Assembly (NCBI GenBank): GCA_046539325.1
Contig: JBKHHD010000002.1
Location: 1 to 64,000, forward strand
Origin: Candidatus Aenigmatarchaeota archaeon
Lineage (GTDB): Archaea; Aenigmatarchaeota; Aenigmatarchaeia; PWEA01
Length of the DNA stretch: 64,000 nt
Direction: 5' to 3'
Shown here: one piece after another, positions 220 through 25,449 of the stretch
Layout of the letters: each line of letters opens with the position of its first letter
Position numbering within the stretch: position 1 is the first letter of the stretch
Position numbers and translations under genes: made by a program
The notes under the pieces: model-generated
What the model was told of the DNA's origin: nothing
Databases searched by the model: none
Seen by the model: only the letters and a program-made list of their open reading frames with translations

Positions 220-2874
220 ATGGAAAATAAAAAAGGCCTGGTATTGTTCTCAGTAGTTCTATGTAGTTTTATCCTTCTGTCCACAGGAGTGCTCGCCGAT
301 TGGTCCGAAGGCGAGGTCCGTACTTACACATTTGAAGGAGATTCTGAAGCAGAATCGAAATACCCTGTAGAACTAGCTCCAGGAACCTATCAAATAGAGA
401 TGCACGGTGCCGACGCCGAAGATGGATGTGACATGGAGGACTATGGATTTGGAGGTTCTGGTGGATATATCAAAGGTAACTTTACTGTAGACTCATATAG
501 AATTCTCAACGTTTGGGTCGGCGAAGGTGCCAGTGGATGGGAAGGTTTGGTAGATGGTTTATGGGGAAGGCACAATGGCGGGGGTGTCAATGGATCAAAT
601 GGTTATGGTGGGGTCGGGGCAGGCTCAACCGAAGCAGTGTTTGGTGATGGTAGTTTCCTAGCTGCTGCCGATGGAGGAGGTGGTGGAGCTTCTGAAATCG
701 AAGTATTGGGAACTACTAATTACTACGCTGGCGGCGGAGGTGCCAGGGGAGGAACTGGTGGAACTGGCGATGTAAACGGTTTAGATGCTGAAGGCGGGGG
801 TTATGGAGGCGACGGTGCCGAGGAAGGATCTATGGATGGAGAAGATGGGGGAACTGAAGCTGAGGATATGCTAGAGGTTATTCAAGAATCAAAAGGTGGT
901 GCAACCAAAGGCTCAGGCGGCAACGGTTATGTAGAGTTAAAGGCTCTTTCACTCGCTCCAAATGAACCAACTAACCCCGACCCTTCCGACGAAGAAATAG
1001 GCGTTTCAACCGACCCGACTCTAAGCGTAGATGCCTCCGACCCGGACAACGACCAGATGAACGTAAGCTTCTATGAAGCCCGGGATTGGCAATACTGCAG
1101 AAACATTTCCGTCTCGAACGCCGTTGAAGGCTACCAGTATTATCTGCATATTACAAACACAACACATATGGACAGGGATTCGATCCGCATAGTCAACGCA
1201 TCCTGCAATGATGGCGGTTCAGTAGTAGACCACTGGACGGAATCCTTCGCCCCGGACGATGCAGAAGTCTGGTTCAAGGGTTCCGGTTCAGGAACTGATT
1301 ATGCCCTTTACTACAACAACTCGGAAGCTTCTGACGCCAGCAACGGTGACAAAACCTTTCCGTACTTTGATCACTGGACATCGGACAATACCGATGACTG
1401 GAGGAACTCCAATACAGGAAACAATCACCATCACTGGTGGTTGGATAACACGGACTTCACTGATTCAAGAGAATTAAAGATTGACAGCAATCTATTGGAC
1501 TGGAACTGTGGTGATTGGGACCACACAAATATAGGATGGACGGAGGACAAAAGTAGTTATTATCAGGATGTCGAGCATGTAACAATCTATTGGGAACACA
1601 AGGACGACAACGGATGTAAAGATAATTCGACAGTTTTGGTGAAACTACACCTCAAAAACTCTGGTAGCACATACACAACTTCCCTCAAAAGTTTCTCGAA
1701 GCCAGATAGCAGTAGCGATATATATGTTTCCCTTTCGTACTCCTCAGACAATGTAAGCTATGAAATTAAGAATCTAGATACAGGAACAGTCTTAGCGTCA
1801 GACTTCATAGACAGTCCATCTAAAATACCCTCTCTACCCTCTACAAACTATTTTTTCTTCCATGCATGGGATGCTGGCGGTGGTATTTTCAATTATAATT
1901 CACCCACCTATCTAAAATGGGGCAATGAACAAAAAAATGGCGGAATGGAGTGGAAGACCGATTACTGGTTTATCAAAAACTACGACCCACCTGAGCCAAC
2001 AACTACCTTGGGCAGTGAGAATCCTGTCACAGTAGGGTTTTATTCAGGATTGATCGGTACAGACGAGAACGTTGATTCAGGAGACAGAGCCTCTGTAACA
2101 TGGTCTGGCCTTTCGAAAGATAATACATATGAATGGTACGCTGTGGCCGACGACGAGAAATATACTAACCATAGTTCTCTATGGAGCTTTACAACTGGAG
2201 AAGAACCTGACTCTATTTCTGTCAAAACCCAACCCGGAGACACCGAAGCCGGTGAGACTATCAACGGGCCGCCTGAAGCAAATGTCACGGATTCGGATGG
2301 AAACGGCGTAGGAGGGATAGAGGTAAATATATCTGAATCCGAAGGTTACAAGTTTGACTCAGGAACCACGACTAATACGACTGAAAGCGATGGTACAGTA
2401 ACCTTCAATGATCTCGTAATAGAAACCGCTGGGACCTATCAGCTTACCTTCGATGCAGAAGGAGTTACAGACGATGCCGTATCGCAGGACTTTGATATAA
2501 GTCCTTCGGATCCTGATAATGTTTCCGTCTATACACAACCCGAGGACACGAAAGTTATTGATCCCATCCGCGGACCGCCTGAATCAGAGGTCGTAGATGA
2601 GTACGGGAACGCAGTCGATGGAGTCGATGTAGACGTCTTTGAATCCGGGGGCTATACCTTCGACTCAGGAACAACAACCCAAACCACCGGAAGTGAAGGT
2701 ATAGCAACTTTCGATGACCTAGAAATACATGAAGAAGGGGTCTATCAACTGACATTCGATACGGATGGAGCCGATGACGCTGTATCAAATAACTTCAGGA
2801 TGACAGTAAATTACTGCGAGGTCAGGATATGTGGACCGCAAAATGTATGTGACGAAGTCACGGTGAGGTGTTGA
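220..2874 (+). CDS. Large secreted surface protein: signal peptide, glycine-rich domain, DUF2341-like region, two Ig-like repeats, Cys-rich pilin-like C-terminal tail
   Basis: Hydrophobic N-terminus ending VLA-D; GGxGG runs; WQYCRNISV...ALYYNN...TFPYFD DUF2341-like pattern; duplicated TQPxDT...GTYQLTFD unit. Confidence 0.7.
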   Translation: MENKKGLVLFSVVLCSFILLSTGVLADWSEGEVRTYTFEGDSEAESKYPVELAPGTYQIEMHGADAEDGCDMEDYGFGGSGGYIKGNFTVDSYRILNVWVGEGASGWEGLVDGLWGRHNGGGVNGSNGYGGVGAGSTEAVFGDGSFLAAADGGGGGASEIEVLGTTNYYAGGGGARGGTGGTGDVNGLDAEGGGYGGDGAEEGSMDGEDGGTEAEDMLEVIQESKGGATKGSGGNGYVELKALSLAPNEPTNPDPSDEEIGVSTDPTLSVDASDPDNDQMNVSFYEARDWQYCRNISVSNAVEGYQYYLHITNTTHMDRDSIRIVNASCNDGGSVVDHWTESFAPDDAEVWFKGSGSGTDYALYYNNSEASDASNGDKTFPYFDHWTSDNTDDWRNSNTGNNHHHWWLDNTDFTDSRELKIDSNLLDWNCGDWDHTNIGWTEDKSSYYQDVEHVTIYWEHKDDNGCKDNSTVLVKLHLKNSGSTYTTSLKSFSKPDSSSDIYVSLSYSSDNVSYEIKNLDTGTVLASDFIDSPSKIPSLPSTNYFFFHAWDAGGGIFNYNSPTYLKWGNEQKNGGMEWKTDYWFIKNYDPPEPTTTLGSENPVTVGFYSGLIGTDENVDSGDRASVTWSGLSKDNTYEWYAVADDEKYTNHSSLWSFTTGEEPDSISVKTQPGDTEAGETINGPPEANVTDSDGNGVGGIEVNISESEGYKFDSGTTTNTTESDGTVTFNDLVIETAGTYQLTFDAEGVTDDAVSQDFDISPSDPDNVSVYTQPEDTKVIDPIRGPPESEVVDEYGNAVDGVDVDVFESGGYTFDSGTTTQTTGSEGIATFDDLEIHEEGVYQLTFDTDGADDAVSNNFRMTVNYCEVRICGPQNVCDEVTVRC
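2200..2800 (+). repeat. Tandem intragenic duplication of an Ig-like domain (two copies of about 100 aa)
   Basis: TQPGDT..GPP..GYKFDSGTT..TFNDLVI..GTYQLTFD versus TQPEDT..GPP..GYTFDSGTT..TFDDLEI..GVYQLTFD; boundaries approximate. Confidence 0.8.
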
Positions 2875-2875
2875 A

Positions 2876-3217
2876 ATGAAAAAAGGTCTTTCACAGATAT
2901 TGGCATTCATGTTGTTAACACTCCTCGCAGTAGTAATAGTTGGGTCCGTAGCTACATGGATGAGAAAAACAGAAGGAGAGGCTGAGGAAGGGATAGGAGA
3001 TAAATTAACAGGCCAAGAAGATATCCATTTCTATATAAGTGGAGTAGAAGAGCAAGACGGATATGTATATGTAAATGTAACCAACAATGGAAGGTTTGAA
3101 ATACATTCAGGACAAATGACAGGATACTTCGAAGGCGACCAAAAAGACGTAGAACAAATAGGAGGACCGGATCCAATACCACCCGGAGAAACAGGTAAAT
3201 TTAACGTAACCGTTTAA
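2876..3217 (+). CDS. Archaeal type IV pilin-like protein, apparently C-terminally short
   Basis: Class III signal MKKG/LSQI followed by hydrophobic helix; VNVTNNG and IPPGE motifs; starts 1 nt after the upstream stop. Confidence 0.75.
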   Translation: MKKGLSQILAFMLLTLLAVVIVGSVATWMRKTEGEAEEGIGDKLTGQEDIHFYISGVEEQDGYVYVNVTNNGRFEIHSGQMTGYFEGDQKDVEQIGGPDPIPPGETGKFNVTV

Positions 3218-9230: not shown

Positions 9231-11048
9231 CTAGGAAACGTAAACCTCTATATCCTTGCTGTTTGCCAGGGCCCTAACAAGACTCTCACCTAGCTCTGAA
9301 TCCTTAGTCAACTTTATCTCTCCGTTTTTGCCTATCGTAGCGGTAAAGAAGTATTCCTTGTCTATGTAGATGTTTGCGTTGCTTCCCGAATACTTGTCGT
9401 CAAAGTTGAAGGTGATGTAGGCTCCTGTTTCACCGATATCGAAATCTATGCTTTCGCCTGTCGTTTTTGTCTTCGGTTCAACGTCTATCTTGACGCCGAG
9501 CTTCTTTTCCAGTTCTTCAACAGTCTTCCCGTTCCTGCCTATAAGATGCGGAATGTTGTCGTTATCGACCTTCGCTGCTATTCTATCCTCGGATATAAAC
9601 TCTACCTCTGGATTATCGTCGAACCTCTTAAGCTCGTCTATTATCTTGTCCTTGGCTAAGCTCTGGACTCCTTTTTCTTCTTCGCTTTCCTGGACCGGGA
9701 CCACAATGTTTTCCTCACCATAGGTGTATATCTCGTACTCCAGCTCCTTTGTTTCAAAGTCTCTTATCTCTATCACCGGCCTTGCAAGGTCCTGCTCCTG
9801 CATTCCTGAAGGAACCTTGACCTTCATCTCCAAGGAATAAACCTTGGTTATATCACCGGCGTCTATATGTATTACAGTGTCAAGCACGTGTGGTATCATT
9901 CCAAGTTCAGTTCTTCCAACAAAGCGCTGAACCGCATCTATAGAATCTGAAGCATGAACCACGCCCACCATTCCTGTTCCTGCCAGCCTTAGATCAGCAA
10001 AGGTCGAAAAGTCGTATCCTTTCCTGACCTCATCGTATATTGTGTAGTCTGGTCTCACAAGAAGGAGGACATCAGCAGAGTTGTCCATCCTCCCCTCCAG
10101 CTCCGTGTACTGTGTTATATCCTCAGAAACGTCAAGATCCCTCGGTGACTCCAAGGTCTTGACAATGTTGCCTTGTGAACTGTAGAACTCCGCAAGCGAC
10201 TGCGCAAAGGTCGTCTTACCGCTTCCTGGATTCCCAGCTATAAGGATTCCCTCGGCCTTCTCCTCCAGCCTGCTCCTGAGCTTATCCGTTATAGAGTAAT
10301 CGTCAAGAGTAAGCTTGACCAGAGGCCTTACAGCAGTTATCTCCCTGCGGAGTGAAAAGGGTGGCTTGGCTATAACGATTCTATAGTCCTTGTACTGGAT
10401 TATTTCTGCACCTTTCTTCGACATCTCGACCTCAGCATCGTCCTTCTTCCTCGCAAGATCTATAATATTCTTACTCAGCTCCTCGAGCTCCTCCTTGTCT
10501 ATCTCCTTACCAGAAATCTCCTCAAGGCTAAAGCTTCCTGGTGAGCCTCTCTTAGCTTTGGGCCTACATCCCTCAACAAGATGAACGCTCATAGTATCTT
10601 CATCGAAGTAGTCTTCCAGCAGAAACTTATCCTCTTCCTCCTGCTTAACGTACACAACCCCAAGGCCTTCTGCTTCAGCAACCTGTGACTGAACGTAGTC
10701 TTCCGTGTAAAGAACAGCTTCCTCCTCGTCAACATGGTCCTTTATTAGCGCATCTATCCTTCCCTTTCCAGCAAGCTTTATCTCTTCTTCCGTCGGTCTC
10801 CTTCCTGTATGCGAGACCTCTATACCCTTATCTCCGAACTCTCTGAGATTCTTTATCTCATCCAGGCCCTCGTAGCCCGTTTCCTTGCCGCGGTTAGCCT
10901 GTGCCTGAAGCTCGTCGACTACGGCTTCGGGAACAATTATCTCTGTGTTATTTAACTCTCCTGCCTCAGCCATTTCGGAGAGCTTCTTGTCAATAAGAAT
11001 AGATGTGTCTGGAACGATCTTCTTTTTTCCGTTAGTTTTCTCTGACAT
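9231..11048 (-). CDS. PIN-domain ATPase with KH domain (PINA family)
   Basis: N-terminal PIN (VPDTS), GNPGSGKTT, RPDYTIYDEVR, GMVGVVHA, KH motif LIGRNG. Confidence 0.92.
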   Translation of the reverse strand: MSEKTNGKKKIVPDTSILIDKKLSEMAEAGELNNTEIIVPEAVVDELQAQANRGKETGYEGLDEIKNLREFGDKGIEVSHTGRRPTEEEIKLAGKGRIDALIKDHVDEEEAVLYTEDYVQSQVAEAEGLGVVYVKQEEEDKFLLEDYFDEDTMSVHLVEGCRPKAKRGSPGSFSLEEISGKEIDKEELEELSKNIIDLARKKDDAEVEMSKKGAEIIQYKDYRIVIAKPPFSLRREITAVRPLVKLTLDDYSITDKLRSRLEEKAEGILIAGNPGSGKTTFAQSLAEFYSSQGNIVKTLESPRDLDVSEDITQYTELEGRMDNSADVLLLVRPDYTIYDEVRKGYDFSTFADLRLAGTGMVGVVHASDSIDAVQRFVGRTELGMIPHVLDTVIHIDAGDITKVYSLEMKVKVPSGMQEQDLARPVIEIRDFETKELEYEIYTYGEENIVVPVQESEEEKGVQSLAKDKIIDELKRFDDNPEVEFISEDRIAAKVDNDNIPHLIGRNGKTVEELEKKLGVKIDVEPKTKTTGESIDFDIGETGAYITFNFDDKYSGSNANIYIDKEYFFTATIGKNGEIKLTKDSELGESLVRALANSKDIEVYVS

Positions 11049-24232: not shown

Positions 24233-24649
24233 ATGAACAAAGGACAGACAATGGTTGTAGCTGCGATACTAATGGTTTCTGTAATAATAGCTTTGGCGTC
24301 AGGAATACTGGTTTTCGGAAAAGAAAATATAACGGACGTCCTAAATGTCGGTGAAGAGGAGGTCGACGAAAGGATAGACGAAACAAAGGCCTCGATAGCC
24401 ATAAACTCCGTATCTGATAAAATAGAGGTAATGAATATCGGAAGCGTAGAGCTACCAGTCGATTTCTCAGTATACGTCGACGGAGAACCGTATGAAGTGG
24501 AACATACATGCGGCGATAAGATCGAAGTTGGAGAAAGATGTAATCTATCCCTCCCGAACTTTGACAGCGATCTATGCACATACGAGATAACTATCCACGG
24601 TCCTGCGGATACATGGGACGAAGTCGAGGCAGGAGAAGCATGCGATTGA
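24233..24649 (+). CDS. Archaeal type IV pilin-like protein
   Basis: Class III signal MNKG/QTMV plus hydrophobic helix; VMNIG, VYVDG; four Cys. Confidence 0.75.
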   Translation: MNKGQTMVVAAILMVSVIIALASGILVFGKENITDVLNVGEEEVDERIDETKASIAINSVSDKIEVMNIGSVELPVDFSVYVDGEPYEVEHTCGDKIEVGERCNLSLPNFDSDLCTYEITIHGPADTWDEVEAGEACD

Positions 24650-24825: not shown

Positions 24826-25449
24826 TTACTCCATTCTGTCGAGGCTATCGCGGATGTTTCTGAGTTCACCCTGTAGGTCCTGAACAGTCTTCGAAACTCC
24901 AGACTCGGGCTCGCTTATGATTTCTTCTGAACCTTCAGGTCTTATGAACTTTTCATCCATTGAGACCAGTGTATTTGCAAGGTTCGCCATTCCCTCTCTG
25001 AGTTCTTTCATACCTCTCCTCTTGATGTTATCAACTTCGTTCATGAGTTCGAAAAGCTGCTTGAGATCGGCGAGGGAACTCCTGACGGACTCAAGATCCT
25101 GCAAGACTTCGTTGTACTTGTCTATCTTGACGAAAAGCGGTGCAAAGTCATCGTCTTTTCCCTGTGGTGGTTTTCTGGTAATATCGGGCATCTCTTCTCT
25201 TCTATCTCCATCCTCCCTTATCCTAACGGATGGTTCGCCCATCATTTCACCTGTCCCTTCAAATTCTACTGACTCCTCTCCAGGAGGTACAGGACCTTCG
25301 TCTATAGGTGCTTCCTCTGTTTCTTCCTCACAAATCTCGGGTCTGGGGGGTTCAGGCAAACGTGTCTCGCCTCTACCTTCTCCTTCGACTTGTCTCTTAA
25401 CCTCTTCTATCTCTCTCTTCTTTTCATCGTCGCTCTTCCAAAATGCCAT
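24826..25449 (-). CDS. Hypothetical protein, Pro/Glu-rich N-terminus and coiled-coil C-terminus
   Basis: Long ORF with host-like composition; PLFVKIDKY followed by heptad pattern. Confidence 0.7.
   Translation of the reverse strand: MAFWKSDDEKKREIEEVKRQVEGEGRGETRLPEPPRPEICEEETEEAPIDEGPVPPGEESVEFEGTGEMMGEPSVRIREDGDRREEMPDITRKPPQGKDDDFAPLFVKIDKYNEVLQDLESVRSSLADLKQLFELMNEVDNIKRRGMKELREGMANLANTLVSMDEKFIRPEGSEEIISEPESGVSKTVQDLQGELRNIRDSLDRME

Follow-up and report, generated by a model that had tools for sequence, protein, structure and literature searches.

The C-terminal tail of a secreted, adhesin-like archaeal protein appears to complete the fold of a short type-IV-pilin-like protein encoded by the next gene downstream. 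The two genes lie at positions 220 to 3217 on the forward strand of the window, i.e., the 64,000 nucleotides (nt) of contig JBKHHD010000002.1 analyzed here. The contig belongs to Candidatus Aenigmatarchaeota archaeon (DPANN), the assembly of which, designated G000, comprises 715 kb in 10 contigs with 44 to 46% GC. We regard it as likely that the adhesin tail completes the head of the short pilin in trans, and we rate it as an even call that the pair then sits on a pilus instead of in the membrane. The binding of tail to head is a prediction from structure models, and the placement on a pilus and the function in adhesion are inferred.

The gene pair, composed of an 884-amino-acid (aa) protein and the short pilin, is referred to below as locus 1, and the locus of a paralogous pilin starting at position 24233 as locus 2. 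Comparisons were made with samples of the genus (8 genomes, G000 plus G001 to G007), the order (22 genomes), and the class (those 8 genomes plus 363 others). Three alignments were used: A1, of the locus-1 tails from 8 genomes; A2, of the short pilins (9 sequences); and A3, of the fused 24233-type pilins and their hairpins.

A secreted modular protein and a short pilin encoded side by side

The first gene (positions 220 to 2874, + strand) encodes the 884-aa protein, a secreted modular surface protein by its open reading frame (ORF), Pfam matches, and composition, in which an adhesin-like body is followed by the proposed donor tail. The Pfam families recognized in it were DUF2341, Big_1, and CarboxypepD_reg, each barely over the cut-off, and its residues are 18% acidic and 5% basic. 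It opens with a Sec-type signal peptide (residues 1 to 26; positions 220 to 297, + strand) made up of a charged n-region, a hydrophobic core, and a small-residue c-region ahead of D27, before which cleavage would be expected. Similar n-h-c segments open the locus-1 large proteins of G003, G006, and G002. No second hydrophobic segment was found in the 884-aa protein with 19-residue windows, the Kyte-Doolittle mean exceeding 1.6 at residues 4 to 11 only, within the signal peptide. The protein thus lacks a membrane anchor of its own, as the first-pass annotation of this DNA had claimed.

At its C terminus, which reads ...NYCEVRICGPQNVCDEVTVRC, the protein carries a 19-aa tail with four cysteines, C-x4-C-G-P-x3-C-D-x5-C (positions 2815 to 2871, + strand; alignment A1), the proposed donated beta-hairpin. 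The first-pass annotation had recognized the four-Cys tail correctly but had placed its start at 2809 instead of 2815. Residues C12, C17, P19, C23, D24, T27, and C30 are invariant in the 8 genomes of A1. The disulfides would pair C866 with C884 and C871 with C877, and the hairpin is probably stapled by both. The four-Cys tail occurs a single time in G000, and a profile of the tail gave one match per genome in the 8 genus genomes (54.9 to 66.2 bits); elsewhere in the class (363 genomes) its scores did not exceed 16.8 bits and fell, in scattered places, on short frames or frames with stops. A word-based homologue search with the tail region returned the query itself only. Pattern scans found 6 loci in metagenome contigs and 7 in genome contigs (185,579-species collection), all of them in contigs of the same seven relatives, so that no new lineage was added, although the scans did supply the G002 protein (774 aa) at full length.

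Judged by BLASTP, the tail is the sole part common to the G000 protein and the seven other locus-1 proteins: the matches covered the last 20 to 39 residues (86 for G005) with 30 to 80% identity and ended at residue 884. The complete large proteins have 884, 774 (G002), 733, 506, 500, and 1487 aa, and Pfam recognized InlB B-repeats, GLUG, Laminin_G_3, Gly_rich_2, and CARDB/Big_7 in the bodies of those from the other genomes. Contigs L019, L021, L022, and L064 (of G002, G004, G001, and G005, respectively) break inside tail-bearing genes, affecting 3 of the 7 locus-1 genes of the relatives and the locus-2 gene of G005. Such breaks fit repetitive or strain-variable adhesin bodies, and body lengths are consequently underestimated.

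The second gene (positions 2876 to 3217, + strand) encodes a 113-aa short type-IV-pilin-like protein, defined by its ORF and orthologues, which consists of the head only and contains no Cys. The stop codon TGA (2872 to 2874) of the first gene and a single spacer base, A (2875), precede its ATG on the + strand, which indicates tight coupling; the ORF coordinates, gene order, and 1-nt spacing reported earlier were all accurate. At its N terminus the pilin has a class III (prepilin-type) signal, in which the leader M-K-K-G precedes some 25 hydrophobic residues of the N-terminal helix (positions 2876 to 2962, + strand; from the sequence and A2). K3, G4, and W28 are invariant in A2, and the K-G leader and hydrophobic helix are present in 9 of 9 aligned sequences. 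The beta domain, residues 50 to 113 (positions 3023 to 3214, + strand), has six strands according to AlphaFold2 (AF2) and VIA-align and is the proposed acceptor of the tail. It ends with ...GKFNVTV at 3214, the stop codon running to 3217, and a replication factor C (RFC) small-subunit gene on the opposite strand ends 5 nt beyond. A word-based homologue search with the short pilin returned 2 proteins.

Orthologues of the short pilin were found in all 7 other genus genomes (113 to 126 aa; 39 to 47% identity; coverage from 1-108 to 1-113; open frames of 116 to 128 aa), and a large ORF with the same tail lies immediately 5' of the short pilin in 8 of 8. In 7 of the 8, the RFC gene remains in synteny; the neighbor in G001 is another gene. 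To judge from these sequences, the truncation of the short pilin is not recent: the paired orthologues in 7 of 7 other genomes speak against a recent nonsense truncation, which the first-pass annotation had named as an objection to its own proposal.

Since a stop codon and 1 nt alone separate the two ORFs, they might be taken for one gene, joined by a programmed frameshift or interrupted by a sequencing error, that encodes an adhesin with a C-terminal transmembrane helix. We consider this exceedingly improbable. A stop codon between the ORFs (TGA, TAA, or TAG) is kept in 8 of 8 genomes, with ATG and the K-G leader immediately past it in 7 of them. The arrangement of stop, 1 nt, and ATG is found in 5 of the 8 genomes, while G006 has 2 nt and G001 has 4 nt between the stop and the start, which in G003 is unclear or overlapping; because the spacing varies in this way (1, 2, and 4 nt and overlap), no single frameshift fits. 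The spacing in G011, a genome from another family of the same order, is 11 nt, and at locus 2 of G002 there are two stops and a downstream ORF with its own signal peptide. The conserved stops and the variable spacing led us to discard a frameshift or a fusion as an account of the two ORFs.

The hairpin in cis and in trans

The reference for a complete fold is the paralogous 138-aa pilin of locus 2 (positions 24233 to 24649, + strand; AF2 and VIA-align), which has four Cys and carries the hairpin in cis. Its C terminus reads ...LCTYEITIHGPADTWDEVEAGEACD, and the C-terminal hairpin extends from C115 to C137 (positions 24575 to 24643, + strand), with the last two strands at residues 118 to 122 and 128 to 132 in the AF2 model; both C115 and C137 are invariant in A3. 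The alignment of the two window pilins proposed in the first-pass annotation was not significant in pairwise BLASTP (expect value [E] of 1.2) but was borne out, with the same equivalences, by a comparison of their profiles: hhalign placed residues 1 to 110 of the short pilin on columns 4 to 112 of the 142 columns of the fused one, with a probability of 98.7% and an E of 3.4e-16. Since this alignment stops at column 112 of 142, nothing in the short pilin corresponds to the last 31 residues of the 138-aa one.

The tail of the 884-aa protein and the hairpin segment of the 24233 pilin share 7 of 15 residues, a count given correctly before. Within the last 25 residues of 1200 G000 ORFs of at least 100 aa, 7 of 15 was reached by no other ORF, the next best having 5; among 265,052 15-mers taken from anywhere in G000, 2 non-self windows reached 7. 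The motif [IVLF]x[IVLF]xGP(3-5)[DE]E, which is descriptive only because it was devised after the sequences had been seen, occurs 6 times in the 417,339 residues of G000 ORFs, and just two of these occurrences, in the tail of the 884-aa protein and in the 24233 pilin, lie within 10 residues of a C terminus.

Both arrangements of the hairpin, in cis and in trans, occur naturally at the locus orthologous to 24233, as a comparison of the genus sequences indicates. The locus-2 pilin is fused in G000 (138 aa), G001 (138 aa), G004 (137 aa), and G007 (143 aa). In G002 it is split: a 116-aa head is followed by two in-frame stops, 21 nt, and an ORF of 291 aa. This ORF starts with a signal-like segment of its own (charged, hydrophobic, small), and its C terminus is clearly homologous to the hairpin, both Cys included. 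The split keeps the Cys pairs intrachain, with two head Cys in the head and two hairpin Cys in the tail. The same hairpin stands in G005 at the C terminus of an ORF of at least 794 aa, which contains InlB B-repeats, is cut by the contig start, and occupies the same syntenic spot; in G003 no more than the last 31 residues lie on the contig. The search for adhesin and short pilin pairs and for fused forms, which had been suggested as a check, thus gave pairs in all 8 genus genomes as well as four fused pilins and a single split one. The 24233 pilin is flanked by a Nop56/58-like gene and a conserved acidic "MAFWKS..." gene. The product of the latter, a very acidic 207-aa MAFWKSDDEKK protein (window positions 24826 to 25449, - strand), adjoins the locus-2 pilin or hairpin partner in G000, G001, G003, G004, G005, and G007, G002 being doubtful; it could be part of this surface module, or its position could reflect simple synteny.

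A profile search of 1.84 billion representative proteins yielded 455 matches at an E of up to 0.001. The 9 matches at an E of 7e-28 or less were all 108 to 130 aa long, so that the tail occurs in cis in no close relative of the short pilin. When the head profile was compared with 151 proteins, 69 reached the end of the head, of which 53 continued beyond it and 16 stopped within 8 residues. In the majority of these 53, the head is followed by two strands with a turn between them; the turn is often G-P or S-G, and the segment frequently closes with a Cys. In three long relatives, P0014 (626 aa), P0042 (257 aa), and P0075 (645 aa), the head is followed by the hairpin, a linker (Ser/Thr-rich in two of them), and a large body.

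A second lineage with a hairpin-less pilin beside a tail-bearing gene is represented by G011. Its 121-aa pilin, P0030, lies 11 nt past a gene (L113, G011:C1 4017-5454) encoding a signal peptide, Cys-rich modules, and long Ser/Thr linkers. This gene contains a 100-N scaffold gap, across which the reading frame differs, as one would expect if the gap length is arbitrary. The C terminus of the upstream protein consists of a strand, G-P, a turn, D-E, and a strand. Throughout the 22 genomes of the order the pilin-head profile gave 115 matches, 11 of them with open frames of 128 aa or less and the others with frames of 134 aa or more. A tail-bearing neighbor was present for 10 of 10 examined short frames (the eight locus-1 pilins, the locus-2 head of G002, and the G011 pilin), which amounts to few events and not ten, since the genomes of the order are kin. 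The 11th short frame, outside these 10, lies 36 nt from a contig end, and its match stops at profile position 95. Two short-looking pilin frames of G197 and one of G044 were dropped, being cut by contig ends or N.

Structure models, predicted docking, and rival readings

The fused 24233 pilin was modeled by AF2 with a predicted local distance difference test (pLDDT) score of about 90 over residues 51 to 138. VIA-align superposed this model on FlaF (4p94_B; Z of 10.0, root mean square deviation [rmsd] of 3.2, 89 residues aligned, model 44-135 on chain 42-164) and on FlaG (5tuh_A; Z of 9.9, rmsd of 2.1, 83 residues aligned, model 48-133 on chain 45-151). The model of the short pilin, in which residues 2 to 42 form a helix, matched the same two structures, i.e., FlaF with a Z of 7.2, an rmsd of 2.2, and 66 aligned residues (model 46-113 on chain 45-136 of 164) and FlaG with a Z of 6.8, an rmsd of 2.2, and 66 aligned residues (model 46-113 on chain 46-125 of 151). 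The fused model reached the last residues of the FlaF and FlaG domains, while the short model stopped 26 to 28 residues earlier. By these models, the short pilin is without the last two strands of a FlaF/FlaG-type sandwich. The sequence identity of the models to FlaF and FlaG was 12 to 20%. The top Foldseek rows were 8q30 and 8fk7 at an E of about 2e-3, none being at or below 1e-3, and solved archaeal pilins and archaellins were also among the structural matches.

The complex was predicted with ESMFold2 in three runs and with 3 controls, the inputs being residues 24 to 113 of the pilin (with A2) and the 30 C-terminal residues of the 884-aa protein (with A1). The interaction prediction score from aligned errors (ipSAE) was 0.62, 0.67, and 0.66 for the pair and 0.01, 0.02, and 0.01 for the controls, so the docking expected in the first-pass annotation did take place in the prediction (0.66 versus 0.02 for the best control). 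In the calibration of this score, 58 of 80 solved complexes attained the mark, as did 2 of 110 mismatched pairs, counts that hold only roughly for user alignments, and the result was graded as one that "supports binding; does not show it." The runs shared at least 95% of their contacts, and the pLDDT of the partner was at least 67. The pilin-tail contacts with the lowest error, 84-15, 82-17, and 86-13, correspond to an antiparallel pairing of tail strand 13-18 with pilin strand 81-86. Tail residue 24 touches pilin residues 52 to 54, and tail residue 16 (I869) contacts I54, V68, and F109 of the pilin. By the general topology of the immunoglobulin (Ig) fold, the tail strands would be F beside C and G beside A. 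The prediction supports the view that the adhesin C terminus completes the pilin beta-sheet in the modeled complex.

Several results weigh against completion in trans, or against a pilus as its setting. All the evidence is computational. The complex prediction used unpaired and shallow alignments of 9 and 8 related sequences. The pairing in 8 of 8 genus genomes represents one or few evolutionary events, because these genomes are kin. The similarity of tail and hairpin was weak in an hhalign comparison of the 8 locus-1 tails with 7 locus-2 hairpins (P = 0.0036, probability of 9%), and for this reason it is by itself suggestive and not proof. A profile built from 51 cis hairpins of distant pilins missed the 884-aa tail among 3206 G000 ORFs at an E of up to 100; since the hairpin is too short and variable, this counts neither for nor against homology. 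The short pilin modeled alone had a pLDDT of 82 to 92 in residues 52 to 113, and such a confident fold implies that the head may be stable without a partner. Hairpin-less heads of 114 to 123 aa also occur in other lineages (P0012, P0016, P0026, P0038, and P0051); two of them, P0038 and P0051, have retained the pair of head Cys that is typical of 24233-type pilins and, by that sequence feature, may represent additional natural splits. Neither window pilin was matched by a Pfam family at an E of up to 1, the NCBIfam model UpsA gave 14.5 bits, below its cut-off of 130, and TIGR02537 gave 17.7 bits, against a cut-off of 20, with the 138-aa paralogue only. Lastly, the neighbors of the gene pair are RFC and adenylate kinase genes and not a pilus-assembly cluster, which leaves membership in a filament unproven.

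The confident model of the isolated head, the statistically weak similarity of tail and hairpin, and the existence of other short pilins would all agree with the short pilin being a complete minimal pilin. The tail would then be a disulfide-knotted cap or a tag (for an S-layer, sorting, or a host ligand), and the two genes would be merely coexpressed; as a variant, a pseudopilus might expel the adhesin as its cargo, in the manner of type II secretion. We judge this very unlikely, for it leaves unexplained why the hairpin is in cis in four genomes and on a separate secreted protein in G002, why 10 of 10 examined hairpin-less pilins have a tail-bearing neighbor, and why the complex scored 0.66 against 0.02 with contacts in strand register. 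It also leaves unexplained that the short model ends exactly two strands short of FlaF and FlaG. To the question, raised in the first-pass annotation, of whether the short pilin is complete alone, the models gave a divided answer: the head was folded confidently, yet it stopped before the ends of the FlaF and FlaG domains. The other computational checks suggested there all favored its reading.

A different rival accepts the completion by the hairpin but takes the pilin for a FlaF/FlaG-like membrane protein that serves as a surface anchor or stalk for the adhesin, with no pilus involved. The best structural matches, FlaF and FlaG, are indeed membrane-anchored archaellum stator proteins and not filament subunits, the gene pair is not clustered with an assembly ATPase or platform gene, and neither pilin passes a curated pilin model. 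All 9 aligned sequences, however, carry the K-G leader and hydrophobic helix of processed archaeal pilins, members of the wider family (the 455 matches) are found in tandem arrays beside pilus-like genes, and the structural matches include the archaeal pilins and archaellins mentioned above. The genome also has the means of assembling pili, with two prepilin peptidase (Peptidase_A24) genes above the cut-off, both elsewhere in the genome, and five matches above the cut-off to the assembly ATPase family T2SSE. On balance, an anchor without a pilus seems rather unlikely to us.

If completion in trans is correct, the events could run as follows. The 884-aa adhesin, with its swappable adhesin-type modules, would be exported by Sec, and its tail would consequently emerge last, with two disulfides keeping the hairpin preformed. 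The short pilin, having a class III signal, would be held in the membrane by its N-terminal helix and would present an Ig-like beta domain without strands F and G. Outside the membrane, the hairpin would slot into the open sheet of this anchored head. The first hairpin strand would pair antiparallel with pilin strand 81-86, the second would lie beside pilin strand 50-54, and I869 would sit in the core. Completion of the fold would tie the adhesin to the pilin non-covalently yet very stably. The pilin helix could then let the pair join a type IV filament, most likely at the tip, or stand as a membrane-anchored stalk, and the tight coupling of the genes would favor their production at a 1:1 ratio.

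Known systems and the genomic setting

The closest counterpart is bacterial. According to the main text of Ellison et al. (PNAS 2026; PMC13533445), the last ~10 residues of PilC/PilY1 complete the small beta-sheet of PilK in trans, while GspK and XcpX supply the strand in cis, as does CpaL after an insert of ~470 residues. The same text describes the genes as syntenic neighbors (MshQ beside mshDOP) and has the completed pilin recognized by a PilI-PilJ heterodimer, which starts the fiber. Bacteria alone were tested there; archaea are mentioned twice in the main text, both times in the introduction, and the authors suggest that beta-strand addition may already have existed in the last common ancestor (PMC13533445). 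Adhesin-like proteins are mentioned in a survey, from 2026, of type IV filament systems in archaea (PMC13705601), the main text of which does not contain the word "strand." Archaeal filaments that polymerize by strand donation and are not type IV pili are reported in PMC12337348 and PMC12518558. Our searches of full-text literature, which did not cover supplementary files, found no split archaeal pilin and no archaeal adhesin docking by strand addition.

The G000 pair resembles PilC/PilY1-PilK in having a large Sec-exported adhesin with a variable N-terminal part, the extreme C terminus of which is predicted to complete a pilin sheet in trans, as well as in having neighboring genes and relatives with the element in cis. 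It differs in that the pilin is archaeal and has an Ig-like FlaF/FlaG-type fold, in that a two-strand four-Cys hairpin is given instead of one strand of ~10 residues, and in that the adhesin gene precedes the pilin gene. Moreover, a Pfam scan of 9 proteins detected no beta-propeller, and the tail of 19 to 20 aa is the only part conserved here, unlike in PilC/PilY1. Counterparts of PilI and PilJ were not identified, no search having been aimed at them. Because of the missing beta-propeller, the other pilin fold, and the two strands, the G000 system stands outside the PilY1-PilK family, though it would work in the same way.

In chaperone-usher pili, a single missing G strand is given by the chaperone or by the N-terminal extension of the next pilin, and this drives polymerization. 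The first-pass annotation had drawn an analogy with these pili, which is reasonable insofar as an incomplete Ig-like subunit is completed by a strand of another polypeptide; the novelty it claimed is narrowed, by the bacterial PilC/PilY1-PilK case, to archaea and to a two-strand disulfide-stapled hairpin. Unlike in chaperone-usher pili, each pilin would receive a single pair of C-terminal strands (~26 to 28 residues in comparison with FlaF and FlaG) from an adhesin that is not itself a pilin, and the N terminus of the acceptor is that of a type IV pilin. In PilB and PilC of Streptococcus sanguinis, which are modular type IV pilins, the adhesin module is fused in cis. Like such modular pilins, among which P0014, P0042, and P0075 may be compared, the G000 pair would display a large adhesin-type module on a pilin head, but the parts are permuted over two genes, with the body and then the hairpin on one protein and the head on the other. 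The best matches of both models, FlaF and FlaG from Sulfolobus acidocaldarius (4p94, 4zbh, and 5tuh), share the N-terminal membrane helix and beta-sandwich. They are parts of the archaellum stator, and we know of no split form of either.

A broader reading is that completion of pilins in trans is general, perhaps ancestral, in type IV filaments, archaea included. In these DPANN archaea it would take a plug-and-display form, with a constant, disulfide-stapled 19-aa plug and a socket pilin, whole adhesin bodies that close relatives exchange, and one locus that flips between cis and trans inside one genus. We put this forward tentatively, as a possibility that we lean against. If it is true, cell-surface symbionts could quickly re-tool their host-binding specificity. 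Confirmation of the docking would make this the first archaeal adhesin mounted on a type-IV-pilin-like protein by beta-strand addition. DPANN archaea have genomes of ~0.7 Mb and are thought to live attached to hosts, and the pair offers a handle on how their surface adhesins are attached without a cell-wall sorting system. It is also a clean test system, with a donor of 19 aa, an acceptor domain of 80 aa, cis and trans versions in one genus, and bodies swapped around a constant plug, and the hairpin and socket could serve as a protein-ligation or display tag. Confirmation would likewise extend the bacterial mechanism reported in 2026 across the domain boundary and make the ancestral origin suggested in the main text of PMC13533445 testable.

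Some observations on the rest of the genome may be added. At least 4 T2SSE-type ATPase genes are present in G000, each near a cluster of pilin-like ORFs (C1, ~15 to 22 kb; C3, ~64 to 73 kb; C5, ~20 to 37 kb; and C6, ~9.7 to 13.8 kb), and 45 G000 ORFs, false positives included, fit a loose pilin N-terminal pattern. Two tandem pilins of 145 and 152 aa on C6 (9712 to 10631), which adjoin an ATPase, are candidates for major pilins. Within the window, a weak T2SSE match (26.2 bits versus a cut-off of 24.9 bits) lies at 9918 to 10310 (- strand), inside a 605-aa open frame. The largest ORF in the G000 list, of 2982 aa, is located on contig C3 (75987 to 84935, - strand) and may encode another surface protein.

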